A stretch of 64,000 nucleotides of DNA from Minisyncoccota bacterium (GTDB lineage Bacteria > Patescibacteriota > Minisyncoccia > Phycocordibacterales > UBA9973), in the NCBI GenBank assembly GCA_035491955.1, contig DATJJU010000003.1, forward strand, positions 15,306-79,305, written 5' to 3'. Position 1 is the stretch's first letter. Every line of letters starts with the position of its first letter. The translations under genes were made by a program, and so were the position numbers. Under the pieces are notes generated by a model. It had not been told where the DNA came from. It did no database searches and was given only the letters and a program-made list of their open reading frames with translations. Shown piece after piece: positions 43,539-64,000 of this stretch.

Positions 43539-44570
43539 TTATAAAATTGTATGCTCGGCAGTAAAATCGATGGTTTGCGTCTGCATGGCATTTGCTTTAG
43601 CAATGTAGTGATTAATCGCAAAGGTGCAGCCAATGATTGCAACAACCATTACTCCATTTAGTATAAGATCGGGGTGGTGATGGCTGATTTTAATCCCAAT
43701 ATTAAGAAATACTGCCAGAGCTACAATTCCAAAAATAATCCCTAGAATAATATTTGTTGTCGTGCGAGGAGAAGCGAACATTCGCTGGAATAGGTTTGAC
43801 TGCTGTGCTGGAGCCGCAGGTTCTACTGAAACAACAGGTACTACTGGCGCTACCGCAGGTGCAATGGCAACTACAGCGGGTTTCGATACCAATTTTGAAG
43901 GCTTGGTCTTAGTGGTACTTTCAGCTCCTAGAACATGAACTGTTGAATTTGAAGCAGAAGTAATAGGAGTAGATACTGTTTGCGCAGGAACTGCAGCAGG
44001 ATGAGCAAAATCTTGTGCCACAAAAATGGCAGGATATCCCTGATACATCCCAGAGGCAACACCAGTTCCTACTTGCGTATAATTTGCTTTCAAAATGTTT
44101 TCTCGGTGCGTCGGACTATTCATCCATGCAGCTGTTACATCATTTGCGTTTGTAAAATCAACTGCAAGATTTTCTCCGGCAGATGAGTAGTAATACCCCA
44201 CCTTATCAAACCAATACCATGGCGTTTTCCCATCCGGGCTAGTGTGTGCAAAATAACTATTCGCTGCCATATCATTAGCTTTTGCCTGTGCTGCTTCGTT
44301 AAGCAATGAGTTAACAGTGAGGGGTTGTAGGCTATACTGCGCACGTTCATTATTTATTAAAGTTGAGAGAACCTCCGGAGTAATATTTCCCGTGTCCGCT
44401 CTGCTAATTAGTGCAATAGTAGGTATTAAGAAAGCAAATACTTCAATAAAAAATACAAATCCGATAATACGATGAGCATTTTTTTCATGCAAAATAAGGG
44501 GGCGATGGCCATTTCCTTCATGCGGGATAAAATGTAATTTTAACCACTGAAACATAGAAATATAATACAT
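43539..44570 (-). CDS. CAP/SCP/PR1-like domain protein with N-terminal TM anchor and C-terminal TM segment
   Basis: NERAQYSLQPL...HTSPDGKT...GENLAVD...AWMNSPTHRENIL CAP motifs. Confidence 0.7.
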   Translation of the reverse strand: MYYISMFQWLKLHFIPHEGNGHRPLILHEKNAHRIIGFVFFIEVFAFLIPTIALISRADTGNITPEVLSTLINNERAQYSLQPLTVNSLLNEAAQAKANDMAANSYFAHTSPDGKTPWYWFDKVGYYYSSAGENLAVDFTNANDVTAAWMNSPTHRENILKANYTQVGTGVASGMYQGYPAIFVAQDFAHPAAVPAQTVSTPITSASNSTVHVLGAESTTKTKPSKLVSKPAVVAIAPAVAPVVPVVSVEPAAPAQQSNLFQRMFASPRTTTNIILGIIFGIVALAVFLNIGIKISHHHPDLILNGVMVVAIIGCTFAINHYIAKANAMQTQTIDFTAEHTIL

Positions 44571-44599
44571 AAAAATTAATGTTTTGTCTATAGTGCAGT

Positions 44600-44628
44600 A
44601 AAAAGCCCTCGGACGGAGGGCTTTTTTA
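44600..44628. terminator. Bidirectional rho-independent terminator
   Basis: agccctc-ggacg-gagggct flanked by AAAA and TTTTTT. Confidence 0.8.
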
Positions 44629-44636
44629 CAATAAGC

Positions 44637-45848
44637 TTATGGAAGCTGAGGCATTGGAAGGTTAAGACTTGGGCAGACAATATTGTTTATGTCACGCTTA
44701 GTCGTCTTATAAACATAGCCTGTACCGACAAGATTCGGATTACCGAGATTCTTCCATGGAACCAAGACTTGTACTGATTCCTTTTCTTGGAATTGCTTTA
44801 CTGCTGCAAAGGTCTGAGGTCCATATGAACCATCTATCTTTATATTTGCGTGAATAAAGTAATTGAGGAAAGCCTGCAAGTTTGTTACATTTTGTTTGTC
44901 ATTCTTTGCACCAAGCTTCACATAACTAGTAATGTATTCTCCACAACTGTTTGGGGTGTCTGTACTTGCACCCAAAACCTGGCCTGCAGGTTTGCCGCCC
45001 GTACTTCCTCCAGAAGTACCTCCTGATCCACTACCACCAAGAATTGTGGTAGGAAGAATACCGCTTGAGCCTCCCCCGCCACCGTTACCACCTCCATCTG
45101 ATGGAGTAGTCGCTGGTGTGGTTGGAACATTGAACGCTACACAGTGGTAAGTTGTGCCCGCTACAGGATTTCTAATATATTCGAAGTTGTCATAATTCAA
45201 ACCGTCGGTTTCGCAATAGAATTCAGCACTGTCTGAATTGCTATTATCGCGAGTTGATTCATTGAAGGTGAAAGGAATGTATCCTGTCTGCAATACTTCA
45301 CGTACGTGGTACTGAGAAACAGTATTAGGAAATGGAACAGTAACAGTTGTTGAGCCATTTGCATCGGTAGGACCAAAAGTATTCCAGTCCCCAGATGCCT
45401 CACCAATGAAGTCATTGGCTACATCGGTAGGATTGGTATCCTGGTAACTCCACTGAAATCTCCAATTCGGAGCCAAGTGACAGTGACCATTACTGTTCGC
45501 TACATAATCTGAAGCCGTAGTAGCGGTAATTGATGTGCCGTTTCCAAGATGCGGTGAGTAGTCGTCAGTATCACAAATCACCTTGGTTGCTTCTATGGTG
45601 ATAGTAGGTACAGACGGAGTCTGAGTATCAATATCAGGATTAGAAACATCAGGACTCTGAGTTTCATCTGTATCTGTAGTAATAACAAGATCCGGAACTG
45701 AAGGGGTCTCAGTTACGATAGAAGGCTCAGTGACTACAGGACTCTGCGTATTGTCATCAGCATGTACTACAGTAGCCATTCCTTTGAATAACAAAGAAGC
45801 GCTCACGAGCAACACTAGCATCCCTAACAATAAATGACTTTTTTTCAT
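44637..45848 (-). CDS. Secreted protein with Gly-rich linker and C-terminal peptidoglycan-binding-like (PG_binding_1) domain (start at MKKSHLLLGM with GAGGA RBS)
   Basis: Signal peptide; GGGNGGGGGSSG linker; NLQAFLNYF...GSYGPQTFAAVKQFQ. Confidence 0.6.
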   Translation of the reverse strand: MKKSHLLLGMLVLLVSASLLFKGMATVVHADDNTQSPVVTEPSIVTETPSVPDLVITTDTDETQSPDVSNPDIDTQTPSVPTITIEATKVICDTDDYSPHLGNGTSITATTASDYVANSNGHCHLAPNWRFQWSYQDTNPTDVANDFIGEASGDWNTFGPTDANGSTTVTVPFPNTVSQYHVREVLQTGYIPFTFNESTRDNSNSDSAEFYCETDGLNYDNFEYIRNPVAGTTYHCVAFNVPTTPATTPSDGGGNGGGGGSSGILPTTILGGSGSGGTSGGSTGGKPAGQVLGASTDTPNSCGEYITSYVKLGAKNDKQNVTNLQAFLNYFIHANIKIDGSYGPQTFAAVKQFQEKESVQVLVPWKNLGNPNLVGTGYVYKTTKRDINNIVCPSLNLPMPQLP

Positions 45849-46143
45849 AAAAAATTCCTCAAAACTTAATAAAATAGTGACTATCTGCACACTACATCTC
45901 CTTTCTTATTTTGTCAACTATCTGCGCGTTGAGAGATCTTTTATAAGCATAAAGCAGAAAAGAGCTACAAAAGATACGAAAAAGCACACTGTTCCAAATG
46001 TATCTTCCCGTGGCCATGGGAGTAAATGCGTGAGAGGTAGTGCCAAGGTCGTTGGATGAAAAACTGCATTCTCTGCAATATAAAACCAGCCTGAAAAACA
46101 AAAGAAAAATAAGGTAAATGTAAAAGCCTTTAGAAATCTCATA

Positions 46144-47430
46144 TTAATTCAACCCACTCGAGAGAAAACCTTGCATTGTTTGATAAGCAGGCTTTTGCGA
46201 ATAATCATTTCGAACAAGACCGAAAAAGTTTTCATTAGTATCAGTTGTAGTTCCCCCATCTCTGTAGGTATACCAGAATAGTGGGCCAGCCCAACTATAT
46301 GATTTATAGAGATTTATGGTATCCGTAACCATCTTTGATTGCTGATCTTCACTAAGATACCACTTTGAATCAGGACCATTTGTTGGAGCGCCGTATTCAG
46401 TGATCCATATCTGCTTTGCGCTATCACCATTCGCATTCATTATACTTCGTACACTAGGGTTACCATTACTCATGCCAGCCCATGCATTTGTAGAATTTGC
46501 AGAAGGAAGCGCAGGAAATGTGTACGGATGATAGCCAACTGCATCAAAGTAATTTTTACCACCGTCCTTATAAACACACTGTAAGAAATCTAGAGGAGCA
46601 ATATTAACATTAGTATTAGCAACCTGAGCCAACCCTCCTGTTATGACATACGCGCCCGGGTCAGCCTTCTTAATAGCTGGGTATACAGCTTTGAGTAGAG
46701 TTGTATATGCTCCACAATCTGACTTGGTAGCCCAAAAATCGTAATCATTTTCTTCATTCCAAATCTCCCAGTAATGCATCCCGTAGCTCTTGTAGCGATT
46801 AACTAAAGCTGTAGCAAATGTCGCAAACTGATTCGGATCATTTGGTGGGCAATGAGCGCCTCCAGTACAACCGGCCGTTCGAGCCCATGGCGGAGTGTTA
46901 ATAATAATACCGAGCCCTACAATACCGTGTTTCTTTAATGAGTTTGCAATTCGATCGTACTTACTCCAATCGTATTGTGAAGCAGAGTTTTGTTGTACAA
47001 AACCCCAATCGATGTCATATCGAACAATTTTCACACCCATAGCTTGCATGCCACTTACTTCTTTTTCAAGATCTGTATCATTCAAACCAGTTAGTTGGCT
47101 ACCCATAGCCATGCCTATACGGTGTGGAAGTGGTGCAACAGGAGTATAAAGACCGCCAAGAGGTTTTGTGGCATCGCTGAGGGTAGCTTTGGTACTAGTA
47201 TCAATAGGATTAGGCGTACTAGTATCGATCGCCAATGGTGTAGTATCAGCAGTAGCTGGGTTTTGTGCAATAGGCGCTACTACCGGCATTATTTTAGAAT
47301 TTTTATATATAAGTGCCAAACGATACCCAAAAAAAATAATGGCAAGAAAACATAAAAAAAAGGTTGTATTACGCGCCGCCCTATTCTTTTGAGATGGAAT
47401 GCCGCCTGATTCTGGCTTCTTTAATAACAT
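46144..47430 (-). CDS. Clan GH-A (TIM-barrel) glycoside hydrolase, PslG/GH39-like, membrane-anchored
   Basis: Acid/base HYWEIWNEEN (NEP-type) and nucleophile IWITEYGAP (ITE-G) motifs; N-terminal signal anchor. Confidence 0.6.
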   Translation of the reverse strand: MLLKKPESGGIPSQKNRAARNTTFFLCFLAIIFFGYRLALIYKNSKIMPVVAPIAQNPATADTTPLAIDTSTPNPIDTSTKATLSDATKPLGGLYTPVAPLPHRIGMAMGSQLTGLNDTDLEKEVSGMQAMGVKIVRYDIDWGFVQQNSASQYDWSKYDRIANSLKKHGIVGLGIIINTPPWARTAGCTGGAHCPPNDPNQFATFATALVNRYKSYGMHYWEIWNEENDYDFWATKSDCGAYTTLLKAVYPAIKKADPGAYVITGGLAQVANTNVNIAPLDFLQCVYKDGGKNYFDAVGYHPYTFPALPSANSTNAWAGMSNGNPSVRSIMNANGDSAKQIWITEYGAPTNGPDSKWYLSEDQQSKMVTDTINLYKSYSWAGPLFWYTYRDGGTTTDTNENFFGLVRNDYSQKPAYQTMQGFLSSGLN

Positions 47431-47489
47431 TACTATCTATGCTACAATATATCGGCAATAAAGTGAAGCATTTGCAATGCTTAACGCCT

Positions 47490-49328
47490 ATGGAAAATCC
47501 TATCACTCGCCTTCTAAAATCTTTTTTTGGCGCGAACCAAATGTCTTTTCGCCAATATATGAAAAACATGGTTGTCCGATTTAAAGAAGACAGCCTTTTT
47601 AAAAACTCGGTATATTTGATAACAAGTACTATCGCAATGTCCTTATTTGGCTTTGCTTTCTGGATCATTACAACTCGCCTTTACACAACAAGCCAAATCG
47701 GGTTTGCAACAGCTCTTATTTCTACCACTATTCTTCTTTCTACTTTCAGCCTGTTCGGATTTAACACAAGCATAGTACGCTTTTTACCGAAATCTGAAAA
47801 TCAGAACAGAACCATAAACACTGCAATTACAGTGGTCACGTTGATTACAATAGTAATTGCTACTGTATACGTACTCAGTATCGGCCGCATTGCTCCTCAA
47901 TTTGATCTTCTAAAAAAAGTGCCGGCATACGGAGTATTTTTTGTATTTTTCATGATACTAGTAAGTATCAACATGCTCACTGACAGCATCTTTATTGCTT
48001 TTCGTGCGGCAAAATATATTTTTATAGAATATATTTTTTTCGGCATCGCAAAAATAAGCCTACCTTTGCTGTTAGTCTCGCTGGGTACATATGGAGTATT
48101 TTTTGCCTATACTGGGTCTGTTATTGTGGCACTAATCGTAACGCTCTATTATCTTGTTAAGAAATTTAGATACTCTCCTAAAGTAGTAATCTCTAAAACT
48201 GAAGTAAAAAATGTAGGACTGTTTGCTGTTGGCAACTATGCAGCAACATTTATCTTGGGGCTTCCCCTTCTTATTCTCCCGACTATTATAGTGACCACTA
48301 TGGGGGCAACTGAATCGGCATATTTTTATATTGCCTCTACAATTGCCGCACTACTATATGGCATTCCTGTAGCAATATGCCAATCGCTTCTCGCAGAAGG
48401 GTCATATGATGAGAGAGCCCTTCGTAGGCTGGTAAAAAGTGCCGCGAAACTGTTGGGTGTTATTATTTTGCTCGGCATCGGCGCCTTTATCGCACTCAGC
48501 AAATTCGTACTGCTTATATTTGGAAGGAATTATGCCGCCAACAGCCGTAACCTGCTCATTGTCATGGCCATTGCTGCTATTTTCGTTGCTATTAACAATT
48601 TAGGAGAAACTGTACTTCGCATTCATCGTAATATAAAAACCCTTGTTTGGATAAGTATTGGTTTTCTTATTGCCACTATTGCTTTTATCTTTTTGCTTAT
48701 CTCGCACGGCATTCTCGGCATGGGATGGGCGCTTCTTTTAGGTCAGGCATTTATGAGTGTTGAACTTGGAGTATATTTTTCATATAGAAAAGTTAAGAAC
48801 GCTTTGCTGTTCTATCTCTTAGGAAGACGCACGTGGAAAGACATAGAATATTTTGACTCTGCATGGTCAGATCGCATTGGACAAATGGCTCAGTACATCC
48901 CTGCAGGTGCAAGTATCTTGGACCTTGGTTGCGGCAAAATGCTTCTCCAGCAATACCTTGAATTAAACCACACGTACTACCCGGTTGATTACAAAGATCG
49001 CGGAGAAGGAACTATTGTCTGTAATTTTAATAGACATCATTTTCCAGATCGATATGCAGATATCGCATTTGTTTCTGGCGTATTAGAGTATGTTGAAAAT
49101 GTTCCTGTATTTATTGCAGATATCGCAAAGCATACAAATCAATGCATCCTTTCCTACTGCTTAATAGAAGATTTTCCGAATATAAGCTTCAGACGAAAAC
49201 AGGCGTGGGTTAATGCCTTTTCTCGGGATGATATCATTTCCCTTTTCTCACAAGCAGGTTTCGTAATTAAAGATGAGAGTAAAACCCCTTCTAATAATTC
49301 TATCTTTAACTTTGTAAAGCAGAATTAA
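47490..49328 (+). CDS. Fusion protein: Wzx-like polysaccharide flippase (MOP superfamily, ~12 TM) with C-terminal class I SAM methyltransferase domain; start uncertain (47364 TTG / 47490 / 47541)
   Basis: About 420 aa of polytopic polysaccharide-biosynthesis-protein-like helices, then SILDLGCGKMLLQQYL motif I and Methyltransf_11-like C-terminus. Confidence 0.55.
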   Translation: MENPITRLLKSFFGANQMSFRQYMKNMVVRFKEDSLFKNSVYLITSTIAMSLFGFAFWIITTRLYTTSQIGFATALISTTILLSTFSLFGFNTSIVRFLPKSENQNRTINTAITVVTLITIVIATVYVLSIGRIAPQFDLLKKVPAYGVFFVFFMILVSINMLTDSIFIAFRAAKYIFIEYIFFGIAKISLPLLLVSLGTYGVFFAYTGSVIVALIVTLYYLVKKFRYSPKVVISKTEVKNVGLFAVGNYAATFILGLPLLILPTIIVTTMGATESAYFYIASTIAALLYGIPVAICQSLLAEGSYDERALRRLVKSAAKLLGVIILLGIGAFIALSKFVLLIFGRNYAANSRNLLIVMAIAAIFVAINNLGETVLRIHRNIKTLVWISIGFLIATIAFIFLLISHGILGMGWALLLGQAFMSVELGVYFSYRKVKNALLFYLLGRRTWKDIEYFDSAWSDRIGQMAQYIPAGASILDLGCGKMLLQQYLELNHTYYPVDYKDRGEGTIVCNFNRHHFPDRYADIAFVSGVLEYVENVPVFIADIAKHTNQCILSYCLIEDFPNISFRRKQAWVNAFSRDDIISLFSQAGFVIKDESKTPSNNSIFNFVKQN

Positions 49329-49329
49329 A

Positions 49330-50526
49330 CTATTTATTTCTGACTAAAGAAGCTACTTTGTAGAGACGACTTCTTGTGTAGTAGTAATCATAAAACCAGA
49401 TCTTTTCTAGGACCTTACGCCCCTGGCCAGTATGAGGATGAGCAAATGATTTGCTAATGCTTTCCTGTAATGCATCCCGCAATTCCTTGTCTGATTCCAT
49501 TTTATTGAGATCCAATAAATTCTCCATTTGAAATGCTGCACCGTCTTCAGTGTACGTTCTTAGATTTTTTACAACCTGTAAATCTATAGACCGAGGAAAT
49601 GTCTTCGATTGTTCTAAAGTTCCTGCAATATGAAGACCGATCATGGTTCTATTACACTTATCACAAAGGCCGCAGTTAAACTTGCCTCTCTTATTTAAAT
49701 AGCACACACGCAAATTTTCTAAAACAATCTGCTCATGAGCAATATACTTTGTCTTCCCTAACCTGTTTGTTTCTGTACCATCATGATGAAAATTGATAAC
49801 CTCGGTACCCCATAAGCCGTCCAGTTGTAGGTGGGTTCCATTGGGGTACTGTTGATCTTTTGTATATGTCGATGCGATATATACGTTATTGATTTCTTTT
49901 CGCAAAGCCAAACCAAGAGCCGCCAAACAACCTCCGTGCGTATAGTCCCACGTCAATATTGGTTCAATGCAATGACGAACATTGCTTTCTACGGTAATAA
50001 GTTCGATACCTTCATGATCTGCAACATTTTCTACAGTGGCCAATGATCTTTCCCATAAATTCTTATTTCTGAGACTAATGTCATAGCCATTTGCCAATAT
50101 GAAATACTGTATCTTTTGAACAGCGGGATTATTTTTGTTTTTAAGATAGGTATAAAAAGAATCAACACCTCCTGAGAAAAATGACGCCGCTGCAGCAGGC
50201 TTATAGGTATCCTTTTTCAGGCTATTAGCTACAATTTTAATTTTCTTTAATCCAATATTCCAAGAAAAGACAAGCTCCATAGCTTCATGTAATCCTTTAT
50301 AAAGCTGTTCGGATATCTCTCCTTCTATAATAAGATTACTGCCCAACTTCATTGAAGGAATCAATAATGCAGCAGCAAAAGGACTCATATCAAGAGCAAT
50401 AAAGTCAACATATTTTTTATCAAACTTGAAATAAATCTTATCGGGCCCGAATGGACGAATAAAACAATCAGCCATCAGAGTTGCGAATTTTGCATCAATC
50501 TTTAATTGTAGATTGCTAATTTTCAT
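49330..50526 (-). CDS. PP-loop ATP pyrophosphatase superfamily protein (QueC/ExsB fold), candidate N-acetyl-sugar amidotransferase (WbuX/WbpG-like)
   Basis: SFFSGGVDSFYTY PP-loop (SGGxDS) and C-terminal CYLNKRGKFNCGLCDKC Cys cluster; ~398 aa; glycan-cluster context. Confidence 0.45.
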   Translation of the reverse strand: MKISNLQLKIDAKFATLMADCFIRPFGPDKIYFKFDKKYVDFIALDMSPFAAALLIPSMKLGSNLIIEGEISEQLYKGLHEAMELVFSWNIGLKKIKIVANSLKKDTYKPAAAASFFSGGVDSFYTYLKNKNNPAVQKIQYFILANGYDISLRNKNLWERSLATVENVADHEGIELITVESNVRHCIEPILTWDYTHGGCLAALGLALRKEINNVYIASTYTKDQQYPNGTHLQLDGLWGTEVINFHHDGTETNRLGKTKYIAHEQIVLENLRVCYLNKRGKFNCGLCDKCNRTMIGLHIAGTLEQSKTFPRSIDLQVVKNLRTYTEDGAAFQMENLLDLNKMESDKELRDALQESISKSFAHPHTGQGRKVLEKIWFYDYYYTRSRLYKVASLVRNK

Positions 50527-51766
50527 AAATATCTTTTACTGTATAAATAGCCTTATTAGCCTCTTCAATATATCCAGGCAAAACTGTATCTAGATGACGC
50601 AGATAGACTGAGCGTTCTCGCGTAAGACGATCGAACATATCAATAAGGTTGTCAGATTCTACTTTCTTAATATTTACTACCCATTGTTCTAGACCGAGGT
50701 CAGCCATGATGCCTCTGGTTTTGTGCTCGTATTCAATAGCCATGCTTGGCACCTTCGAAGTAAGGGCAAATATAACCGAATGGAAGCGGGTACCAACAAG
50801 GTAATCCAGATCGGCATACATTGCTTTTACAATATGGTGATCATATCGCTCCTTTACTACATACGCTTTATCCTTCTCCTCCATATAACTGTAAACACGC
50901 TTACTGCTCTCTCGATCATCATCTGACTGCAGCTCAACAGTAACCTGAGGAATAAAAATAACAGCGGCATTATACGCGGTCACAATATGGTCCGCTAAGG
51001 CTGCTACTGAACGCTCGTAATGTTCCTGAGCTTTTGAATTGAGCCATGCCCGAACAGTAACACCTACAATCATTTTTTCTTCCGGGATGTGGAATTTTTC
51101 ATGAAGATTGACAGAGGTATTGCTTTGGAAAGCAAAACCGCTATCTACAGACAAAGAAACGTTCTTTTTGATACCCCATTTCTTCAACAACTCAAGCGAG
51201 ATATGTTCTCGCACAATAATTCCATTAAGTCGTTTTACTGCAAAACGAGCCATTCGCTCCTGAAAACGATTTCCGAATGGTCCCACAGACTGGGTATAGC
51301 CGACTGTTTTCTTGCCCAAAATATAAGAGAAGACAAAAGGATGAAGAATGAAGAAAAGCCCAAAGGTGCCCATAAGGCCTTCTTTTCCCCTCACATATCC
51401 GCCGCCAACAGAAATAACGATGTCAGCATCTTCATATAGCTTCACGACTTCTTGAATGGATTTCGGTAAAGGAATATTTACTTTAAACCATCTATAGGAA
51501 AATGCCGTGATAAAGGTAAGTGTAGTGATGTATGCAGCATAGATAGCTTGCAGCACACGGTTTTTATACTGCTCTCTAGCATAATACATAAACGCATGCT
51601 TCATTGTTACTCCGTCAAACGTTTCTCCGGGAGCAAGAGTATCGAGCGTCAATATCGTCATATCAGGATTATCAAAACCGCGCTTGATATCCGATATCAA
51701 AACACTGAGGAGCGCAGCGTCTCCTTTATTATCGTTTGAGTAAACATGTGAGATAAGTATTTTCAT
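50516..51766 (-). CDS. Polysaccharide pyruvyl transferase family protein (CsaB/WcaK-like)
   Basis: N-terminal YSNDNKGDAALL (GNxGDxAxL-type) motif; ~416 aa. Confidence 0.65.
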   Translation of the reverse strand: MKILISHVYSNDNKGDAALLSVLISDIKRGFDNPDMTILTLDTLAPGETFDGVTMKHAFMYYAREQYKNRVLQAIYAAYITTLTFITAFSYRWFKVNIPLPKSIQEVVKLYEDADIVISVGGGYVRGKEGLMGTFGLFFILHPFVFSYILGKKTVGYTQSVGPFGNRFQERMARFAVKRLNGIIVREHISLELLKKWGIKKNVSLSVDSGFAFQSNTSVNLHEKFHIPEEKMIVGVTVRAWLNSKAQEHYERSVAALADHIVTAYNAAVIFIPQVTVELQSDDDRESSKRVYSYMEEKDKAYVVKERYDHHIVKAMYADLDYLVGTRFHSVIFALTSKVPSMAIEYEHKTRGIMADLGLEQWVVNIKKVESDNLIDMFDRLTRERSVYLRHLDTVLPGYIEEANKAIYTVKDIYEN

Positions 51767-51772
51767 AAGCTG

Positions 51773-54079
51773 TTAGTGATAAATTTGTGAACCTCCACTG
51801 TTATAAATAAGGTTTTTATTGTTTTTAATAAATTCCATTGGATAATTAAAAGTAATCAGATCATTTTTATATTGGAATGACGCTATGCCAGTCATAATAT
51901 TATTCGTACTAATGTATACATATCCCTTTGGGTCAATTGTTTCTGGAAACACGGCCGTATTTTCAGAGCTCATACCTGCAAAAGATTCTAAGCGAAGATT
52001 CGCTTGAGCATCTGCTTCAACAGGATCGTCGTAATTTCTATCATTCAAAATCCAATGAGCTCCGGCTATTTCCGAATCATGAATATAGAGTCCCTGCATA
52101 GTACTTGGAGGTTGATTCAAGGTAATATGAATCACTCCTCCCGTATAATAATCAACCAGACCCGTTGTTGATAAAAATACTACCGATAGGACACAAGCAA
52201 TTACGAGTTCATTTCGTTTAAAATATTTCGTCAAATTAATAGCCCCTACAATAGCTACAGTACTCAGGAAAAGGAACATCTGAAGATATAATCTGGTGAG
52301 ATTATATTGCTGCTGCAGGTACGGAACCGCAACCATCAATACAATAAGGGCGCACCCGCTGACACTAAGAACAATAAGCTGGTATTCCTTATTGGACCTT
52401 GTTTTAGAGAAACCTTTATATAAAAAGACTAATCCAGCCAAAGGAAATACCGCGATCGCCATAATCTTAGCTGTGTTTGCTATAAAAGCAAGTGCTTTCG
52501 ACAGAACCTCAGGGAGCATTTTTTGAGCGTGTACAGCTGAATCTACGGGGTAGGATGGATAGCTAACAGTCAGAGAATCAGGATAAAATTGATAGTAATA
52601 TGTCTTAATAGCATTCTGTTTTGCTTCCTCTATTGTATCGATCGTATTCTTCGGACCGACAATGTTTGCTACTCCGTTTTTTGATACGCCTGATGAAAAT
52701 GACGGTTGTGAGGATGTAACGATTTCAGATTCTGTAATAGGTGCATTCTCTGTTGCAGGCTTCATAACCGTACCTTTATTTGTTATAAACTCTGTAACCT
52801 TTCCAATAGTTCGAGTGATGGGTACCTGCCATATAAACAGCATTGTTACAGCAAGAACAATAAATACCGGCTTGAACACGGAGGACTGATCTTTAAAAAG
52901 ACTGATCTTTTTTGAAATATATGAAAACAGTGATGCTACTACCAGCAAAATAATTGCCACATAGGCAGTTGAGTAGTGAGACAAAACAATGCCCATAAAA
53001 CTAATTCCCACCAATATATTACGCGTTACTTTTTTCAGATTTTTATCAAGAAGCACTAGCAACAATAGCAAGAAAAAAGGGAAAGCATACTCTTGTCTTA
53101 TAAGCGCTGGCATTTGTTCAAAAAACCATGTTTGCGATAGAAGTAAAAATGCAGAAAGGAAAGCAGAGATGCTAGTGCTTACATATCGCTTTGCAAACAC
53201 ATATACCATAACAGGAGAAAGAGCGAAGAAGATCTGGAACAGGAATTTAAATACATATTCTCCGGAAATATGCGTTAGTTGAACAAGTATGGTTGGCAAT
53301 ATCGTAATACTAAGACATGCATTATAGTCCAGCCCTGCATAATAAGACGCGTGCCACATAAGATGCTGGAGCGTTGTTTGAAACACTTCATACTCCTGAT
53401 TGATATCCCATCCTAATATATGATTGCTTCTGAGAGAGTACATGAGAAGCAAAGAGAGGCTGATTGTGTAGAGCGCTACAATATAAACGCTCTCTTTAAG
53501 ACTTTTATTCCAAAATGCCAGAGCGATAACATAGACAGCTATTGCGGCAATCATTACGACTGTTATCGTATTACTGCCATTATTGTTTAAACGCTCTGCT
53601 CCTAGCCATGCGAGTATGGGAAAAATGAAAGCTATGGCTAAGAATATTCGACTTATCATATTTCCAACTTGGAACTTTACTGTAAGAGTAACGTTCTTCT
53701 GAAAAAAATATATGAAAAGCGAAAGCCCTAAAATAATAACGTCAAAAAATACTACGAGCGGAATTTTTGCCAGAGGGTGATGAATACCAAATAAAGGTAA
53801 TAGAAAATTGGCTATCACCCCCCCTAAGAGTACGAAGCCGAAACCTGTAAGAAGAGCATAGACAATGTATTGAGCAGTATTATCAGAGGGTATATTCAGT
53901 ATCACTGACAACAATAAACCGGTTAAGCCGAAAAGGCCCACTAGAACAATCGGAACTGTAATCCATAAAGGTACAGAGGAAACAAGCACTACGACAGTCA
54001 TGATCGCGATCAAATAAATCGCTACAAACAGAAGCCTCTTATTTGTCAGTATTAGATTATTCCCTCCTCTCTCTTCCAT
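51773..54079 (-). CDS. Large polytopic membrane protein, paralogue A (GT-C-fold / DUF2206 / YfhO-like architecture; family unassigned)
   Basis: About 16 hydrophobic helices, ~100-aa central loop, ~110-aa C-terminal soluble domain; shares GWDINQEYEVF, ACLSITILPT, LSHYSTAYVA and C-terminal NNKNLIYNSGGSQIY motifs with 54096-56471. Confidence 0.5.
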   Translation of the reverse strand: MEERGGNNLILTNKRLLFVAIYLIAIMTVVVLVSSVPLWITVPIVLVGLFGLTGLLLSVILNIPSDNTAQYIVYALLTGFGFVLLGGVIANFLLPLFGIHHPLAKIPLVVFFDVIILGLSLFIYFFQKNVTLTVKFQVGNMISRIFLAIAFIFPILAWLGAERLNNNGSNTITVVMIAAIAVYVIALAFWNKSLKESVYIVALYTISLSLLLMYSLRSNHILGWDINQEYEVFQTTLQHLMWHASYYAGLDYNACLSITILPTILVQLTHISGEYVFKFLFQIFFALSPVMVYVFAKRYVSTSISAFLSAFLLLSQTWFFEQMPALIRQEYAFPFFLLLLLVLLDKNLKKVTRNILVGISFMGIVLSHYSTAYVAIILLVVASLFSYISKKISLFKDQSSVFKPVFIVLAVTMLFIWQVPITRTIGKVTEFITNKGTVMKPATENAPITESEIVTSSQPSFSSGVSKNGVANIVGPKNTIDTIEEAKQNAIKTYYYQFYPDSLTVSYPSYPVDSAVHAQKMLPEVLSKALAFIANTAKIMAIAVFPLAGLVFLYKGFSKTRSNKEYQLIVLSVSGCALIVLMVAVPYLQQQYNLTRLYLQMFLFLSTVAIVGAINLTKYFKRNELVIACVLSVVFLSTTGLVDYYTGGVIHITLNQPPSTMQGLYIHDSEIAGAHWILNDRNYDDPVEADAQANLRLESFAGMSSENTAVFPETIDPKGYVYISTNNIMTGIASFQYKNDLITFNYPMEFIKNNKNLIYNSGGSQIYH

Positions 54080-56472: not shown

Positions 56473-58803
56473 TTATGGGTATATAGACAACAAGGCTTTT
56501 CCTACAACATCCCAATCGTAATGAGTAAGAACGAATTCCCTGCCCGCTGCAGACATTTCATCATATTGCATATTTTTATACAAAATGTCAAGTATAGTGT
56601 CGGCAAAAGCTTCTGGTGCGTCCGCTATTGCGATACCGTTATTTTTCTCTATTCCTTCTGCTCCTTTTGATGCAGAAACTACAGGCAAGCCAGCAGCCAT
56701 GTACGTTAATATCTTAAGTCTGGTGCCGGAGCCGTAGCGAACAGGACAAATACCAATTGCTGACTCAGCAAGATAAGGACGGATATCTTCCACAAAGCCT
56801 GTGCCTTTTATGGAGTCGTCTTGAACACCTTCTTTTTTAAGCCACTCAGGTGTTGCGCCAATAATAGTAGTTGATATTGCGGAATCTTTTTTCTTTAAAT
56901 GGGGGTAAATTTCATGTATGTAAAATTTCACTGCATCAGCATTCGGAGGATATTTTACCCCTCCGATAAACAGTATCTTTTTATTGTTATCCTTCTTTTT
57001 TACTGGAACAAACTCTTTGCAGTCGACTCCATTAGGAACGATGAACACATTCTTATTAATTTGTTTAAAATAGTCTGCATCATTATTTGAACATGCAATA
57101 ACAATATCGGCTTGCTTCGTAGCTTCTATTTCAACTTTCTGCAAATGAGGTACAAGCCACTTCCCTACTATTCTTTTTGGTGATGAAAACAGTTCCAATG
57201 ACTGTTCAAATAATGCTCCTTCAATATTATGAGTATCAAGAACTATTTTCACGCCTTGTTTCTTAAGCCAAGGAATATATTTTCGGATACAGTAATATCC
57301 GCTGATCTGTTCAATATGGACTACATCAGGTAATTTTTCCTGACAAGCGGCATAAAAAATTTCTCCCACCCCGCTTATTCTGAAATTCTCTATTGCGGGT
57401 TGCACACGCTTGAACAAAATAGCCTTTAAAAAAGTTAGTGGTGTTAATTTCTTTTTTTGTATAGGATGAACAGTGATATTCGGCTCTCGTTTTAAAGCAT
57501 CCACAGCTTCGCTATTATCGGCAATACAGAAAAGATCGATAGTAGTATGACTTTTTTTAGAAAGCTGTTTAAGCAAATGGAAGTTTCTAATTTCAGCTCC
57601 TCCACTGTTTCGAGGAGTGTTAGTAGATACAATATAAATTGTTTTTTCCTTGACATCTTTTTTTACCGCAGAAGATATGCCCAAGAAAGCTTCAGTTTCT
57701 GCTGCTAATATAGACCAATTATATTTTTCTTTAGCGTATACCTGAGCATTTTTTGATTTATCATATATATCTGCATCACCCAACGCATAGAGAATTGTCT
57801 TTTCGAGGTCAGTACGATTGTTTGACTGGGCAATATATCCAATTCTTCCATGATCCACAAAAGAAGGCAGATCGCCGATATTGCTGACAAGAGGTACGAC
57901 CCCTCGAGCCATGTATTGAGAGACTTTCATATTGCTTGCCGCTAATACTGTCCGCTCATTCGGCATATAACTATAGCCAATATCGCCGGGAGAAAAAGTA
58001 TCCTTCACATCAGTGAGGGCAAGCCATCCTGTAAATATAGTATTCTTGGTAATTCCAAGAATACCGGCTTTTTCTTTAAAATAATTAAGATATGTTCCGT
58101 TGCCCATTATTAAAATTTTTATGTCTGGGTATTGCGCGATGACATTAGGAAGAACATCGAACAATGGTTCAAGAATATTTTTTCTATTAATAGCACCCAT
58201 GAATAAGATTCTTTTACTATGCATTTTTTCTTTCACGGGAGTAAACCACTCATCACTGACGCCGTTCGGTAATATATGCACAGGCTTTTTAGGAAAGGAT
58301 TCTTTATACATGCTGTAAAGAAAACTTGAAGCAGCTATAATCTTATCAGCATAATATGCCGATATTTTTTCTGACCATGCCACAAGTACGCGCTGATACC
58401 ATGGATGACCTTCGATTTTCATTACTTCACTACCCAAATCATCCATATCTAATACTACGGATGTGCCGTAAAAAAGCTTACCGAGCAAGCCTACAGCGCT
58501 TATCGGCGTAGGCTTGTAGATATAAATAAGGTCTGAGCGTTTTCGTAGTATTTTCCACGAAGCACTAATAAGATAAGGAATGAGATTTATTAGAGGGTTT
58601 CGTGTTTTAAATTGAAAAGGTTGATAGATCTTTACTCCATTAAGTGTCGTGATTTTTTCATATGAAAAATTATTATACTTGTCGGCACTAGGAACTATAA
58701 TGGTCACATCATGACCATTCTTGTGCAGCTCTGTTGCAAGTTGCACAATGCGATAACTAAAATTGCTGCGGATACTCCCCGATCCTAAAAAAGTAATCTT
58801 CAT
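56473..58803 (-). CDS. Tandem double-domain GT4 (group 1) glycosyltransferase
   Basis: Two GT-B modules, each ending in an E-x7-E-like region (EKYNWSILAAE; second copy after aa ~400); 776 aa. Confidence 0.7.
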   Translation of the reverse strand: MKITFLGSGSIRSNFSYRIVQLATELHKNGHDVTIIVPSADKYNNFSYEKITTLNGVKIYQPFQFKTRNPLINLIPYLISASWKILRKRSDLIYIYKPTPISAVGLLGKLFYGTSVVLDMDDLGSEVMKIEGHPWYQRVLVAWSEKISAYYADKIIAASSFLYSMYKESFPKKPVHILPNGVSDEWFTPVKEKMHSKRILFMGAINRKNILEPLFDVLPNVIAQYPDIKILIMGNGTYLNYFKEKAGILGITKNTIFTGWLALTDVKDTFSPGDIGYSYMPNERTVLAASNMKVSQYMARGVVPLVSNIGDLPSFVDHGRIGYIAQSNNRTDLEKTILYALGDADIYDKSKNAQVYAKEKYNWSILAAETEAFLGISSAVKKDVKEKTIYIVSTNTPRNSGGAEIRNFHLLKQLSKKSHTTIDLFCIADNSEAVDALKREPNITVHPIQKKKLTPLTFLKAILFKRVQPAIENFRISGVGEIFYAACQEKLPDVVHIEQISGYYCIRKYIPWLKKQGVKIVLDTHNIEGALFEQSLELFSSPKRIVGKWLVPHLQKVEIEATKQADIVIACSNNDADYFKQINKNVFIVPNGVDCKEFVPVKKKDNNKKILFIGGVKYPPNADAVKFYIHEIYPHLKKKDSAISTTIIGATPEWLKKEGVQDDSIKGTGFVEDIRPYLAESAIGICPVRYGSGTRLKILTYMAAGLPVVSASKGAEGIEKNNGIAIADAPEAFADTILDILYKNMQYDEMSAAGREFVLTHYDWDVVGKALLSIYP

Positions 58804-58807
58804 AACA

Positions 58808-59962
58808 TTATTTAATAAGAGAATTATATATTTCTATATACTTTCCAGTCTGTATCTCCCAGCTGAACCCTTGAGCTTTTAACGACCCCGCATCTCCTAA
58901 TGCCTGAGCAAAAGCATGATCACTTATTATTTTTTCTATAGCCTCAGCTAGAGCTTGTGGATTTTTCGGTTCAACAATCAGACCTGTAACACCGTTATCG
59001 ATGACCTGAGGAGTACCGCCAATATTAGTACCAATAATCGGACGACCTGATGCCATAGCTTCGACCAGTGACACACTAAACGCCTCTGAGTCAGAGGTAG
59101 ATGGCAAAACCATTACATTCATTCTCTCAAACGCCTTCACAAGCTCTGCCCCATATTGAGGACCAGGAGTAATAAAATTGTCTTGTATATTTAAATCTTT
59201 TGCCTGTTGCGTATAGAGACCGAGTGCATCGCCTCCTCCGACGATCTCTAGTGTCGCGGAAGGTCTTTTTTTAATCACAATAGCCATTGCCTTAATAAGA
59301 TATTCGATACCTTTCCACATTGAAGAAAGCTCTACTCTGCCAACAAAAGCTACACGTTCATTATTCGGCACCGCAGTCTTTTTAAATCGTTCCAAATCCA
59401 CTCCGGTAGGAATAAAAGAGACCTTGTTTATAAATTGAGGAAATACGACAGGAATAAAGTTTCGAGCCACTGCCACAATATGATCAGCGCGCTGAAGGAG
59501 CTTTTTCAAAAAATATAATTCGTAGACCCCTATAATAAGATCAAGAATGAAATTTCCCTTACGCATACTGCCAGAGTGATATGTCACGACCAAAGGAATA
59601 TGCTTTTTATGAGCTACTGCAGCAGCAACATCCGCCATAAATGGCACGGGTGAATGCGTGTGAACAAGACTAGGCTTTTCTTCATCAAAAATCTTTGTGA
59701 TCATTTTTGACCAAGCAAAATTAATAGGCGTATTCGATAAACGAAACGCGATAGGAAGACGGTGCACTGTCATGCCGTCAATCATATCTTTGCGATAGCC
59801 TTTTCCATCATAGTTACTGGAGATAATGCTGACCGTATAGTTTCCGCTCTCTTGCAGCATCTTTGCAGTGGTATAAGCAATAGTTTCGAGACCGCCCACT
59901 TTTGGGTAAAAATATGATGCAACCACTGTAACATGAGGTTTTTTTATTATTGATTCATTCAT
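58808..59962 (-). CDS. GT4 (group 1) glycosyltransferase
   Basis: N-terminal HVTVVASYFYPKVGGLE and C-terminal SDSEAFSVSLVEAMASGRPII GT4 motifs. Confidence 0.8.
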   Translation of the reverse strand: MNESIIKKPHVTVVASYFYPKVGGLETIAYTTAKMLQESGNYTVSIISSNYDGKGYRKDMIDGMTVHRLPIAFRLSNTPINFAWSKMITKIFDEEKPSLVHTHSPVPFMADVAAAVAHKKHIPLVVTYHSGSMRKGNFILDLIIGVYELYFLKKLLQRADHIVAVARNFIPVVFPQFINKVSFIPTGVDLERFKKTAVPNNERVAFVGRVELSSMWKGIEYLIKAMAIVIKKRPSATLEIVGGGDALGLYTQQAKDLNIQDNFITPGPQYGAELVKAFERMNVMVLPSTSDSEAFSVSLVEAMASGRPIIGTNIGGTPQVIDNGVTGLIVEPKNPQALAEAIEKIISDHAFAQALGDAGSLKAQGFSWEIQTGKYIEIYNSLIK

Positions 59963-62226
59963 ACATATAACTCTTCTAATTTGCTAATAGTTGCCTCCCA
60001 ACTGTATGGTTCTGAAAAATGCTCGTAATACTCGCCAGGTTTTCTTGATGCCAATACTTTTTTAATTGTATCAGCAAGCGCCTCGGCATTTAAATCAGAT
60101 ATCATGCCATTATCATTATTGATAATAAGATCTTTTGCTGCATTATGCTTGGCGTTGACTGTTACCACCGGCAAGCCTATGGCGTTGGCTTCGATTACAG
60201 TAATTCCGAATCCTTCACGATCAGAAGGAAGCACAAACACCTTAGAGGCTTTCATTAATGCATACACGTCTTCTTGCTTATCTAAGAAACCAGTAAAAGT
60301 TACCGCATCACTGATATTCAAACTGTCTGACATTTTTTCTAGATATTCTTTTTGAGGACCATCACCCACAATATACGCCTTTATGGCTGGAGAATCTTTT
60401 TTTATCTCCGCTATAGCATGAAGCAAGGTGCCCACATTCTTATGAGGTAATAATCTTCCGGCAAAAATAATATCTGACTGAGTACTCGGTAGTATTTTTT
60501 TCATAAAAGAAAGATCTAACGCATTTGGAATAGTTACAACACGATTTTTTATACCCAAAATATTTTTTAACTCCGCAGTAGTATGATCTGATACTGAAAT
60601 TATACTATCAGGCAACGTGGCGCTGATTTTTTCAATAAAATACGCTATGGAACCGAAAGTAAAACCAAGATATTCCCTCCAGTATTTCTTTCCCCATACT
60701 TCATGCCAAGTAGCTATCATTTTCTTTCTCTTAAGCATACAGACAAATTTTGTAACAAGTAGCACCGTATGAGGAATATGATCAACATCAAGAATATCGA
60801 ATGATTTTGTAAGAAGCTTAAATGCGCTCAATGAGAAAAATAGTGCCTGCTTTAAAGATCTTCGATTGCCTATATATAAAGGATAATAAGAGCTTATCGC
60901 AGATAATGTAACTCCCTGATCTTGAATGGTATATGGGCCCTTCCACCACTTCATACAATAGATCGTGACATCATAGCCTTCTTTCGCCAGTTGTATCGTC
61001 AGATCATATAATCTTTTCTCTTTTCCTCCTTTGTTAAATTGGTACACGGCGTCAGAAACAAACGCCAATTTCTTAGGGGGCTTTTGGCCAGCATCTGAAT
61101 ACACGCGCTCTAGTTTTGAGATAATAGCATTCCAATTAAAATATTCATTAACATACTGTTTTGAGTATTCTCCCATTTTCTGCAGGCGTGTTTCATCGAA
61201 AACAATTTCTCTTATAGCGCCTTGAACGCTTTCATCTGTGGGATTCTTAATAAGATACATCATCTCCCTATCGAGTTTATAGTCCTTATACCCTTCATCG
61301 TCAGATGTAATAATAGGTAAACCGCATGCCATAGCCTCTTGAATAGCAAGAGGAAACCCTTCACTCTCCGATGGAAGAATAAAAATATCGGCAGCTTGAT
61401 ATACTTCCGCCATTTCCGAAGGCTGTATTTTTCCTAGGAAAACCAGATTATCGCTACTCTCCTGAATAGGAGTAGCTCCGGCAAACGCAATTTGATATTC
61501 TGAACTCTCAGCAGATAAAACTTTGGTAAAGCCCTTTTTGGGTACAAATCTTCCCACAAAGAGGATAACCTTTTTATTACTATCCAAGCCAAATTTTTTA
61601 CGCAATATCTTTTTCTCTTCTACTGAAACAGGCTTAAAAAGTTTTTCATTTACGCCATTGATAAGCATAACGATCTTTTTATCGGAAACTCCTCGTCTTA
61701 TTAAGAATTTTTTTACCGACTGGTTATACACCATGATACGATTGCTAAATTTAAAAATTATTTTACCCGTTGTGACATATACGAATTTCTCAATTAGTAC
61801 AACAATGCGACTCGGGTGCTTGATGAGTGCAATATGTTCAGTTAACACTAATGGCTTTTTAAACAACCGAGCGAATAGTGCGGCAAAAAACGAACTCATA
61901 TAAAACGCATCGTGAATATGCACGACATCGGCTTTCTTTACTTCGCGTCTTAGTACTGGCAGTAATCGAAGGGAGAAAATCGGGAATGGTGCTCCCCATT
62001 TTTCTGAGAAGTTCAGTGCTTTGATTCTGATGACACGTATTCCATCAACAATAGCACTTTTCTCATCTGCATTAGTCTCACTAGTTACTACAGTAACCGT
62101 ATACCCCGAAGCAACCAAGCGCTTCGCTTGGTTATATGCCACCATTCCTACACCAGTTACATGAGGAGGAAAATGATGAGTGACTATAAGAATGCTCTTT
62201 TTAGACTCATTCATATTGCTACTCAT
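59959..62226 (-). CDS. Tandem double-domain GT4 (group 1) glycosyltransferase
   Basis: Two GT-B modules with ESEGFPLAIQEAMACGLPII and DREGFGITVIEANAIGLPVV. Confidence 0.7.
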   Translation of the reverse strand: MSSNMNESKKSILIVTHHFPPHVTGVGMVAYNQAKRLVASGYTVTVVTSETNADEKSAIVDGIRVIRIKALNFSEKWGAPFPIFSLRLLPVLRREVKKADVVHIHDAFYMSSFFAALFARLFKKPLVLTEHIALIKHPSRIVVLIEKFVYVTTGKIIFKFSNRIMVYNQSVKKFLIRRGVSDKKIVMLINGVNEKLFKPVSVEEKKILRKKFGLDSNKKVILFVGRFVPKKGFTKVLSAESSEYQIAFAGATPIQESSDNLVFLGKIQPSEMAEVYQAADIFILPSESEGFPLAIQEAMACGLPIITSDDEGYKDYKLDREMMYLIKNPTDESVQGAIREIVFDETRLQKMGEYSKQYVNEYFNWNAIISKLERVYSDAGQKPPKKLAFVSDAVYQFNKGGKEKRLYDLTIQLAKEGYDVTIYCMKWWKGPYTIQDQGVTLSAISSYYPLYIGNRRSLKQALFFSLSAFKLLTKSFDILDVDHIPHTVLLVTKFVCMLKRKKMIATWHEVWGKKYWREYLGFTFGSIAYFIEKISATLPDSIISVSDHTTAELKNILGIKNRVVTIPNALDLSFMKKILPSTQSDIIFAGRLLPHKNVGTLLHAIAEIKKDSPAIKAYIVGDGPQKEYLEKMSDSLNISDAVTFTGFLDKQEDVYALMKASKVFVLPSDREGFGITVIEANAIGLPVVTVNAKHNAAKDLIINNDNGMISDLNAEALADTIKKVLASRKPGEYYEHFSEPYSWEATISKLEELYV

Positions 62227-63003
62227 TTATTTATTATTGAGTATTGGCTGCTGGCGCAATCGAGGTTGCTGCTGAAATTGAGGTCTCGGTTTCCAGAATA
62301 GGTTCTTGAAAAACATCCAGAAAATCCGAATGCCGTCTTTGAAAGGATTGAGGTTTGTTTCTCCGGCGCGAGCACTGTAACTAATAGGAACAGAGCAAAT
62401 TTCTAATCCAAGGTGAGCCATTTTTGTTACCATTTCCATTTCAATAGCAAAGCCTTGCGATTTTAGGTGAGGTCGAAGTTTTTCTAAAGCACTAAATTCC
62501 CATGCAAAGTAACCAGTCAAAACATCAGTGACATGAACACCGTAAAATGTACGTACTAATCGTGAAAAAATACGATTACCAATACGATTAGTCATCTTCA
62601 TAGAACCCATGAGAATCTTGCCTCCCAATCGTGAGCCAATAACGACATTGCTAAACTTTGAACGAAGAGGTTCGAGAAGGCGGAGAATCTCACTAGAGTG
62701 ATAAGTATTATCCCCATCAAGCATTACAACGTAGTCACACCAATCAGAATTGATTACGTACTTGAAGCCGGTTCTGATAGCATTCCCTTTACCTTTCTTT
62801 GGTTCGTGCAAAACTGTTGCACCTAATGAACGAGCGATTTCTCCTGTTCGATCTGTAGAATTATTATCAATAACAACTATTTCAGTTTCAAAACCGCTGT
62901 GACGCAAGGCTTGTTTTGGAAAACTATGAATAACGTCTGCGATGCCACATTCTTCATTGTAGCAAGGGATAACAATAATTACTTTGTGTGGTTTTATAGT
63001 CAT
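62227..63003 (-). CDS. GT2 glycosyltransferase, Dpm1/polyprenyl-phosphate sugar synthase-like (start at MTIKPHK)
   Basis: VIIVIPCYNEE, VVIDNNSTD and MLDGDNTY (DxD) motifs; ~258 aa. Confidence 0.8.
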   Translation of the reverse strand: MTIKPHKVIIVIPCYNEECGIADVIHSFPKQALRHSGFETEIVVIDNNSTDRTGEIARSLGATVLHEPKKGKGNAIRTGFKYVINSDWCDYVVMLDGDNTYHSSEILRLLEPLRSKFSNVVIGSRLGGKILMGSMKMTNRIGNRIFSRLVRTFYGVHVTDVLTGYFAWEFSALEKLRPHLKSQGFAIEMEMVTKMAHLGLEICSVPISYSARAGETNLNPFKDGIRIFWMFFKNLFWKPRPQFQQQPRLRQQPILNNK

Positions 63004-63007
63004 AGTA

Positions 63008-63454
63008 TTAATTGTTATTAGGGATAAGAAAATCAATACTCTGATTGAGATTTTTCAAAGTAACTTGAACCATTCCTTCTTCGTCTGTAAGAGTTGAAGT
63101 ATGCGAAACAATAACTGTTCTTGTTTCATCATCTGCGAGAGTCACAGTTCCTTTAAGAATGGAGAGGGTTTGACCATTTTTATATACAAAATTTACAGTA
63201 TAGGGATATGTAGTTTGTATTCCTTCAACATTATGAATATTAAAAGAAAATGTTATTTTTTGTCCCTTACTTATTGATTTAGGAAGATTCTCTGAATTAT
63301 TAAAATAGAGTTCGGTATAGGGTTCTAACTTGGGAGTAAAATTAAGACGATTGAGAGCATCTGATATTTGAGTATTAAATACCAAGATAGCAACTGCAAG
63401 CGCAACAATTACTACTGCTGGGATAAGTATTTTTTTGTGTACTGGATTCTCCAT
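63008..63454 (-). CDS. Hypothetical membrane-anchored protein at the head of the glycan operon
   Basis: N-terminal TM anchor; ~148 aa. Confidence 0.4.
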   Translation of the reverse strand: MENPVHKKILIPAVVIVALAVAILVFNTQISDALNRLNFTPKLEPYTELYFNNSENLPKSISKGQKITFSFNIHNVEGIQTTYPYTVNFVYKNGQTLSILKGTVTLADDETRTVIVSHTSTLTDEEGMVQVTLKNLNQSIDFLIPNNN

Positions 63455-63998: not shown

Positions 63999-64000
63999 AA

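Follow-up and report, generated by a model that had tools for sequence, protein, structure and literature searches.

A Wzx-type flippase fused to a SAM-dependent methyltransferase in a Patescibacteria glycan locus, and the pairing of the methyltransferase family with pyruvyl transferases

The stretch of DNA analyzed here (the window) comprises 64,000 nucleotides of contig DATJJU010000003.1 from a Minisyncoccota bacterium. It contains a gene that encodes, in one polypeptide of 612 amino acids (aa), a Wzx-type flippase domain followed by a class I S-adenosylmethionine (SAM)-dependent methyltransferase domain. The fusion was found to be genuine, and the methyltransferase was found to belong to a widespread family whose conserved genomic partner is a polysaccharide pyruvyl transferase. 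In the reading that we favor, with a probability of roughly 0.6, the gene is part of a cell-surface glycan locus in an uncultured bacterium of the Paceibacteria (Patescibacteria), and we infer that the lipid-linked glycan is methylated, alongside its pyruvylation, at the cytoplasmic mouth of the flippase.

The reading frame is open from 47364 to 49328 on the forward strand and terminates in a TAA codon at 49326-49328. When the protein was compared with Pfam, Polysacc_synt (PF01943) matched aa 37-255 with 49.7 bits (cut-off 28.2, E=4.5e-13). Hydropathy revealed 12 hydrophobic segments in the flippase domain, and basic residues clustered in its N-terminus and in the even-numbered loops, which is consistent with both ends of the domain lying inside the cell (N-in/C-in). 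The full-length AlphaFold2 model, built with 106 aligned sequences, had a pLDDT (predicted local distance difference test) of 94.3 and a pTM (predicted TM-score) of 0.82, and contained 12 transmembrane (TM) helices in two six-helix bundles, a fold found in the solved Wzx structures. A Foldseek comparison of this model with the PDB returned MOP-superfamily transporters only. The top TM-score was obtained with the lipid III flippase WzxE (9g9n_A), at 0.81 normalized to WzxE, with a root mean square deviation of 3.9 A and 412 columns. These findings support the assignment of the N-terminal part to the PST/Wzx-type flippases of the MOP superfamily, and translocation of a glycan is predicted for it.

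The C-terminal part matched Methyltransf_23 (PF13489) over aa 456-593 with 43.0 bits (cut-off 27, E=5.3e-11) and Methyltransf_11 (PF08241) with 21.5 bits (cut-off 21.2), while NCBIfam added a sub-threshold MetW match only. Against a hidden Markov model (HMM) of the methyltransferase family, the domain gave an E-value of 4e-77. The family signature, W-x-D-I-E-Y-F-D-x2-W-x2-R-I ... DLGCG ... YPVDY-x2-R ... FN ... SG-x-LEY ... SYC ... R ... W-x-N, is present in the window domain, with LDLGCG at aa 477-482 and the acidic residue D500 of YPVDY, at the end of strand 2, invariant across the 53 family members aligned. Since the domain keeps all 23 family-invariant residues, among them those of DLGCG and the acidic one in YPVDY, it looks catalytically intact. 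A model of the domain alone (pLDDT 92.8) showed a class I Rossmann-type fold in which strands alternate with helices, and Foldseek gave it 567 PDB matches of methyltransferase type at E<=1e-3. Sequence searches of the PDB with the methyltransferase gave no meaningful match (E=0.38 with the single sequence and 0.008 with a profile, both generic). A chain-terminating methyltransferase of the WbdD type was considered and rejected, as the domain is of approximately 180 aa, has neither coiled coil nor kinase, and has a Wzx-type flippase as its export partner.

In Wzx proteins both termini are cytoplasmic, and SAM is available in the cytoplasm. Because the flippase domain has a 12-TM N-in/C-in topology and TM12 is directly continuous with the methyltransferase, the latter is placed in the cytoplasm, near the membrane. 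The original prediction, made from the sequence of the window alone, had described a single reading frame that joins an approximately 12-TM MOP/Wzx-like domain to a cytoplasmic class I methyltransferase with SILDLGCGK as motif I. This description was borne out by the Pfam matches of both domains, all above their gathering cut-offs, by the hydropathy and the models, and by the position of the motif (aa 475-483).

Among 97 homologues examined, four carry both domains, namely the window protein and P0002-P0004. The latter three are 611-618 aa long, are 61-63% identical to the window protein, and derive from assemblies of different samples, so that the same fusion was found three times in relatives. 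The closest flippase-only relatives, P0005 and P0006, are 64-68% identical to the window flippase domain, and split P0005 is 82% identical to fused P0003. Their loci consist of a GH5-like gene, the flippase gene and then convergent pyruvyl transferase and DUF2206 genes, and a separate Methyltransf_23 gene encoding 182-187 aa lies approximately 50 nt 3' of the flippase gene on the same strand. When the DNA of the fused genes was aligned with that of a split locus (L001), the fused genes were found to lack approximately 80 nt present in the split arrangement, corresponding to the last four flippase codons, the stop codon, the spacer of approximately 50 nt and the first five methyltransferase codons. 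The fused and split states thus differ by an in-frame deletion and not by a one-base change, and the junction contains no frameshift or stop. In the AlphaFold2 model, residues 382-444 form a single unbroken helix made up of TM12 and the first methyltransferase helix; through the deletion, TM12 came to run straight into the basic helix at the start of the neighboring methyltransferase. Together, these findings confirm that the fusion is genuine.

In a bootstrapped neighbor-joining tree, fused P0003 grouped with split P0005 with moderate support (85.5%), and the placement of the window protein had bootstrap values of only 16-35%; the fused or split state has probably changed more than once. A profile search with the four fused proteins against 1.84 billion representatives recovered no further flippase-methyltransferase fusion in its top 150 matches. 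The representatives were clustered at 50% identity and the four known fusions are probably hidden behind a flippase-only representative, likely P0011, so that this count is a lower bound. A scan of metagenome contigs for the fusion yielded one truncated locus.

The family to which the methyltransferase domain belongs consists of stand-alone proteins of approximately 180-200 aa (about 185 aa) that are annotated as hypothetical. A family scan with one genome per species found 31 loci, and 24 of these held clear members, in Bacteroidota, Verrucomicrobiota, Planctomycetota, Terriglobia, Alphaproteobacteria and Geomonas (six phyla). When the neighborhoods of the 24 loci (L009-L032) were searched with HMMs built from Pfam-annotated neighbors, a PS_pyruv_trans gene was found <=2.2 kb from the methyltransferase gene in 20 of them, and in 13 of these 20 loci the two genes were immediate neighbors with the same orientation. 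Contig ends truncate three of the four loci with no nearby pyruvyl transferase. The pair is carried by the cultured species Geomonas propionica and G. azotofigens, and the same pairing was found by gene calls in three further loci. In the window, the pyruvyl transferase gene lies 1.2 kb from the methyltransferase domain with one gene between them, and in loci L001 and L003 it follows directly, in convergent orientation. The neighbor counts in the 24 loci therefore identify the pyruvyl transferase as the conserved partner of the methyltransferase, and the flippase fusion as a speciality of the Paceibacteria.

Stand-alone members have strongly cationic N-termini (+4.4 per 22 aa, compared to -0.3 for the rest of the domain) that also tend to be amphipathic, which suggests that these proteins bind the membrane peripherally. 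Apart from these, P0096 (444 aa) holds a member of the methyltransferase family that is fused N-terminally to a domain of approximately 250 aa without a Pfam match. A pyruvyl transferase was considered for this C-terminal domain and rejected, as neither BLASTP nor a custom HMM gave a match.

The flippase family was found joined to other enzymes as well. The top 150 matches of the profile search (P0162-P0296 among the proteins) were all obtained through the flippase part, except for one stand-alone methyltransferase, and 34 of these 150 (approximately 23%) were flippase representatives longer than 540 aa. Nine of the 10 long flippases that were scanned carry an extra domain. An APH-type kinase was the most frequent partner (three cases, proteins of approximately 700 aa), and the others were pyruvyl transferase, GT4 and GT2 glycosyltransferases, hexapeptide acyltransferase, polysaccharide deacetylase, an AMP-binding enzyme and exosortase. 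Fusions with a pyruvyl transferase occur among the relatives in P0069 and P0184. LicA, a choline kinase, is a member of the APH family, and the kinase fusions recall the phosphocholine checkpoint of the flippase TacF. Judged from these sequences, attachment of a tailoring enzyme is a recurrent theme in this flippase family, of which the methyltransferase fusion is a further example.

Taken together, these findings suggest the following order of events. Glycosyltransferases encoded in the locus (GT2 and GT4) would build a lipid-linked unit, which the pyruvyl transferase, using phosphoenolpyruvate (PEP), and the methyltransferase, using SAM, would decorate on the cytoplasmic side. The tethered 12-TM flippase would then flip the decorated oligosaccharide, linked to polyprenyl diphosphate, from the cytoplasmic leaflet into the outer one, and the GT-C-like DUF2206 proteins would polymerize or transfer the exported unit outside. 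The tether would raise the local concentration of the enzyme at the entrance of the flippase and would thereby bias export towards methylated units. Methylation at or just before translocation, as put forward in the original prediction, would fit all of the evidence. We infer the substrate, the order of the steps and any gatekeeping from the arrangement of the genes and domains, and attractive candidates for the form of the methyl group are an ester with the pyruvate carboxylate and an O-methyl group on the residue that carries the pyruvate.

Several observations weigh against methylation at the flippase. A flippase of the window type was found within 10 kb of the methyltransferase in none of the 24 loci (outside Paceibacteria), and the fusion may reflect only convenient co-expression. 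The syntenic loci of P0008, P0010 and P0011, whose flippases show 56-61% identity, contain the pyruvyl transferase gene and no methyltransferase gene. Flippase orthologues are thus present in methyltransferase-free loci, and therefore methylation is not required for flipping in this flippase family; because these distant syntenic loci have the flippase without the methyltransferase, the latter is an accessory module, gained first and fused later. The structural neighbors of the methyltransferase domain are generic small-molecule O- and N-methyltransferases and give no clue to its substrate. Moreover, no initiating phosphoglycosyl transferase or Wzy-type polymerase was recognized: Bac_transf, Glycos_transf_4 and Wzy_C had no match among the scanned open reading frames (ORFs) of the window, which ends at 64000, inside the glycan locus. 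In one alternative reading the fusion is functionally neutral, with the methyltransferase acting on a soluble precursor (for example, a nucleotide-sugar) or on another molecule, and with the deletion tolerated because both proteins were already at the membrane in equal amounts; neither channelling nor gating would then occur. The alternation of fused and split states among close relatives, flippase orthologues that would function without any methyltransferase, and the small-molecule enzymes nearest to the methyltransferase in structure are all in keeping with neutrality. It is at odds, however, with the cationic, amphipathic N-terminus of the stand-alone members, which suggests a membrane-bound substrate, with the partner enzyme family CsaB, which works on lipid-linked repeats, and with the repeated fusion of the same flippase family to tailoring enzymes, which argues for selection and not accident. 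We consider a neutral fusion unlikely.

A more specific proposal is that the methyltransferase esterifies the carboxylate of a pyruvate ketal, neutralizing its charge, or methylates the same sugar, so that a composite methyl-plus-pyruvate epitope or cap is formed. Such a target is suggested by the pairing of the two genes across phyla, mostly as direct neighbors in the same orientation, by the flippase-pyruvyl transferase fusions P0069 and P0184, and by the occurrence of both methyl and pyruvate as terminal caps (PMC10629545). However, a review of pyruvylated glycoconjugates has methyl esters only as analytical derivatives and no methyltransferase (PMC6801904), the fold does not separate O-methylation from carboxyl methylation, and adjacency indicates a shared pathway, not a shared atom; this target is quite improbable on present evidence. 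As a wider and rather doubtful conjecture, the methyltransferase and the pyruvyl transferase could form a so far unrecognized two-enzyme module, conserved from the candidate phyla radiation (CPR) to Bacteroidota, Verrucomicrobiota and Geomonas. Its product would be an epitope that combines a pyruvate ketal with a methyl group, the latter bound as an ester to the ketal carboxylate or as an O-methyl group to the same sugar. The Paceibacteria would have coupled this module directly to the flippase as a 'decorate-then-flip' checkpoint, and the kinase, acyltransferase and pyruvyl transferase fusions would follow the same design. The two remaining explanations concern the protein itself. The original prediction had named an unrelated transporter as a possible identity of the N-terminal domain, and a MATE-type exporter of small molecules, in place of a flippase for lipid-linked glycans, would be in line with the similar Foldseek E-values obtained for MATE, MurJ and Wzx structures. 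A Wzx-type MOP fold was found instead: Pfam gives Polysacc_synt and not MatE, WzxE, matched over the full length of the 12-TM domain, has the highest TM-score, and the gene belongs to a glycan locus that is conserved, which makes a MATE exporter very improbable. It had also named a sequencing error as a source of an artificial fusion, and the window does come from a metagenome-assembled genome whose closest relatives have two genes. That an assembly or sequencing artefact merged two genes into a single ORF is nevertheless hardly credible. The fused state needs an in-frame deletion of approximately 80 nt and not a single-base error, the same junction recurs in three other assemblies that share only 61-63% identity, and it is modelled as one continuous helix; such an artefact is excluded because the fusion is kept in four independent assemblies, with split orthologues at the same locus.

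Table 1. Features of the fused gene and of the surrounding glycan locus (positions in the window)
Feature	Position	Strand	Details
GH5-like glycoside hydrolase gene	46144..47430	-	divergent from flippase gene; same position in all related loci examined
Promoter-like site TTAATA-16-TG-TACAAT	47421..47448	+	divergent region between GH5-like gene and flippase gene; consensus match only
Fused flippase-methyltransferase gene	47490..49328	+	612 aa plus stop; uninterrupted ORF
Wzx-like MOP/PST flippase domain	47490..48785	+	aa 1-432; 12 TM helices; PF01943, hydropathy, AlphaFold2, Foldseek
Fusion junction	48786..48830	+	TM12 (...ELGVYFSY) straight into basic N-terminal methyltransferase helix (RKVKNALLFYLLGRR); model, alignments
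Class I SAM-dependent methyltransferase core	48831..49325	+	aa 448-612; PF13489, invariant residues, domain model
SAM-binding motif I, SILDLGCGK	48912..48938	+	aa 475-483; D478, L479, G480, C481 and G482 invariant in 53 family members
Convergent 398-aa gene	49330..50526	-	uncharacterized family; FSGGVDSF and Cys cluster (QueC-like or PP-loop-like); ends TAG
Polysaccharide pyruvyl transferase gene (CsaB/WcaK-like)	50516..51766	-	PF04230 1.6e-29; TIGR03609 CsaB 6e-35
Two tandem paralogous DUF2206 membrane protein genes	51773-54079, 54096-56471	-	768 and 791 aa; second with weak PMT_2 (GT-C) match
Glycosyltransferase block	56473..63036	-	double GT4 776 aa, GT4 384 aa, double GT4 755 aa, GT2 269 aa

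The features of the fused gene and its neighbors are given in Table 1. Synteny of the flippase locus holds in nine related loci. The 3' end of the pyruvyl transferase gene overlaps the 398-aa gene by 11 nt. DUF2206 proteins are present in one or two copies in the relatives, and from their sequences they are GT-C-like candidates for an extracytoplasmic polymerase or transferase. The double GT4 proteins, encoded at 56473-58803 and 59959-62226 (-), each contain two complete GT4 modules and flank the single-module GT4. Directly downstream of the GH5-like gene, a hydrophobic ORF of 74 aa was found at 45918-46142 (-), and a gene encoding 70-73 aa occupies this place in four related loci; the ORF probably encodes a genuine membrane protein of small size. 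Bordering the glycan locus, secreted proteins are encoded at 43539-45890 and 15232-16707 (-). They comprise a CAP-domain protein and PG_binding_1 proteins, one with Laminin_G_3, and at least the CAP-domain protein is syntenic in the relatives. These proteins may be wall-associated and linked to the glycan.

The convergent gene ends 1 nt from the fused gene, as had been noticed in the original prediction: base 49329 alone separates the TAA at 49326-49328 from the TAG (cta at 49330-49332). More than 500 'hypothetical' proteins without a Pfam domain make up the family of its 398-aa product, and the gene recurs at the same type of locus in other Patescibacteria. FSGGVDSF and the cysteines C275, C285, C288 and C291 are invariant across 36 members, and 29 of the 36 gave sub-threshold QueC matches over the cysteine region, with a best E-value of 7e-4. 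The 398-aa protein had no match to Pfam or NCBIfam at threshold, and the family profile found nothing in the PDB. Thus, the earlier view of the gene as a PP-loop gene is based on the invariant SGGVDS motif and the weak QueC matches. A PP-loop enzyme is plausible but unproven; by way of speculation, such an enzyme could amidate a carboxylate, for example that of a pyruvate ketal.

Three start codons were considered for the fused gene: ATG at 47490 (612 aa), ATG at 47439 (the NCBI call, 629 aa) and TTG at 47364 (the longest ORF). The identical public-database protein P0001, entitled 'MAG TPA: oligosaccharide flippase family protein [Candidatus Paceibacterota bacterium]', begins at the ATG 51 nt upstream of 47490, and the called starts of the homologues P0003, P0005 and P0006 are equivalent to 47490. 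The promoter-like site at 47421-47448 overlaps the upstream ATG at 47439; such sites do not exceed the number expected by chance in this region. Because of this overlap and of the starts called in the orthologues, ATG 47490 is mildly favored as the start. The extended -10-like match (TG-TACAAT) coincides with the codons for 'MLQY' of the NCBI-called start, and the N-terminal extension 'MLxY..NKVK' conserved in P0002, P0004 and P0008 may represent conserved promoter DNA and not a translated segment.

Wzx-type flippases and glycan-tailoring methyltransferases are both known kinds of protein. What is new is their fusion and the pairing of the methyltransferase with the pyruvyl transferase; the literature searched yielded no account of a Wzx flippase joined to a methyltransferase, nor of the methyltransferase/pyruvyl transferase gene pair. 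The interest of the locus lies mainly in this unreported pairing and in the value of a natural fusion as a 'Rosetta stone', which indicates two proteins acting on the same molecule in the same place. The fusion links an uncharacterized and widespread methyltransferase family to the export of lipid-linked glycans, and the pairing gives a testable function to a family that is now annotated only as 'hypothetical' or 'Methyltransf_23'. The fusion also offers a compact model for the coordination of tailoring and flipping in Wzx-type pathways, in which, to our knowledge, such coupling is known only from the selectivity of the flippase, as in TacF. In addition, the locus suggests that Patescibacteria, a group with envelopes that are, as far as we know, almost unstudied, have a surface-glycan pathway not yet described. 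The practical impact is modest, as the chemistry is ordinary and the fusion is limited to a small clade; fusion of neighboring pathway genes is a common evolutionary event.

The closest known system by fold is WzxE (PDB 9g9n) and the other Wzx flippases for O-units and enterobacterial common antigen, with which the window protein shares the 12-TM MOP fold, the Polysacc_synt match and a place in a glycan assembly locus. Unlike WzxE, with which its sequence identity is only 14-16%, the window protein has a covalently attached cytoplasmic SAM methyltransferase; moreover, its locus has no recognized Wzy or phosphoglycosyl transferase nearby, and its host, a CPR bacterium, lacks an outer membrane. 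A functional parallel is TacF, the teichoic acid 'gatekeeper' of Streptococcus pneumoniae, a MOP flippase that refuses undecorated teichoic acid units, so that transport is coupled to cytoplasmic decoration of the lipid-linked unit (PMC13385700). TacF, in contrast, has 14 TM helices and senses phosphocholine via a binding cavity, and LicD1 and LicD2 are separate proteins (PMC13385700). In the window fusion the coupling would come from the physical tether of the enzyme, and any selectivity of the flippase is putative.

Where export depends on ABC transporters, it is coupled to methyl, methyl-phosphate and possibly pyruvate caps (PMC10629545; PMC7685785). There, WbdD (with a kinase) and the carbohydrate-binding module of Wzt tie cytoplasmic methylation of a lipid-linked glycan to export (PMC10629545; PMC7685785), as is proposed for the window protein. 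WbdD is, however, a large coiled-coil protein that caps a finished polymer, which is recognized by the binding module on the ABC transporter, whereas the window fusion places a methyltransferase of approximately 180 aa on a Wzx-type flippase and presumably acts on a short unit. The ketal-pyruvyl transferases CsaB and WcaK (PF04230) share the locus with the fusion and are the conserved genomic partner of its methyltransferase family, and CsaB acts before export, adding pyruvate to the lipid-linked repeat and not to the free sugar (PMC6030368). They differ from the methyltransferase in their use of PEP and not SAM chemistry and in their fold, and the pyruvyl transferase is itself fused to the flippase in P0069 and P0184. 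A parallel in architecture is MprF, in which a lysyl-phosphatidylglycerol synthase is fused to the flippase of its product (PMC5898192). Like the window protein in the reading favored here, MprF combines in one polypeptide a cytoplasmic lipid-modifying enzyme and the flippase that moves the modified product, but its flippase fold, its phospholipid substrate and its chemistry are unrelated.

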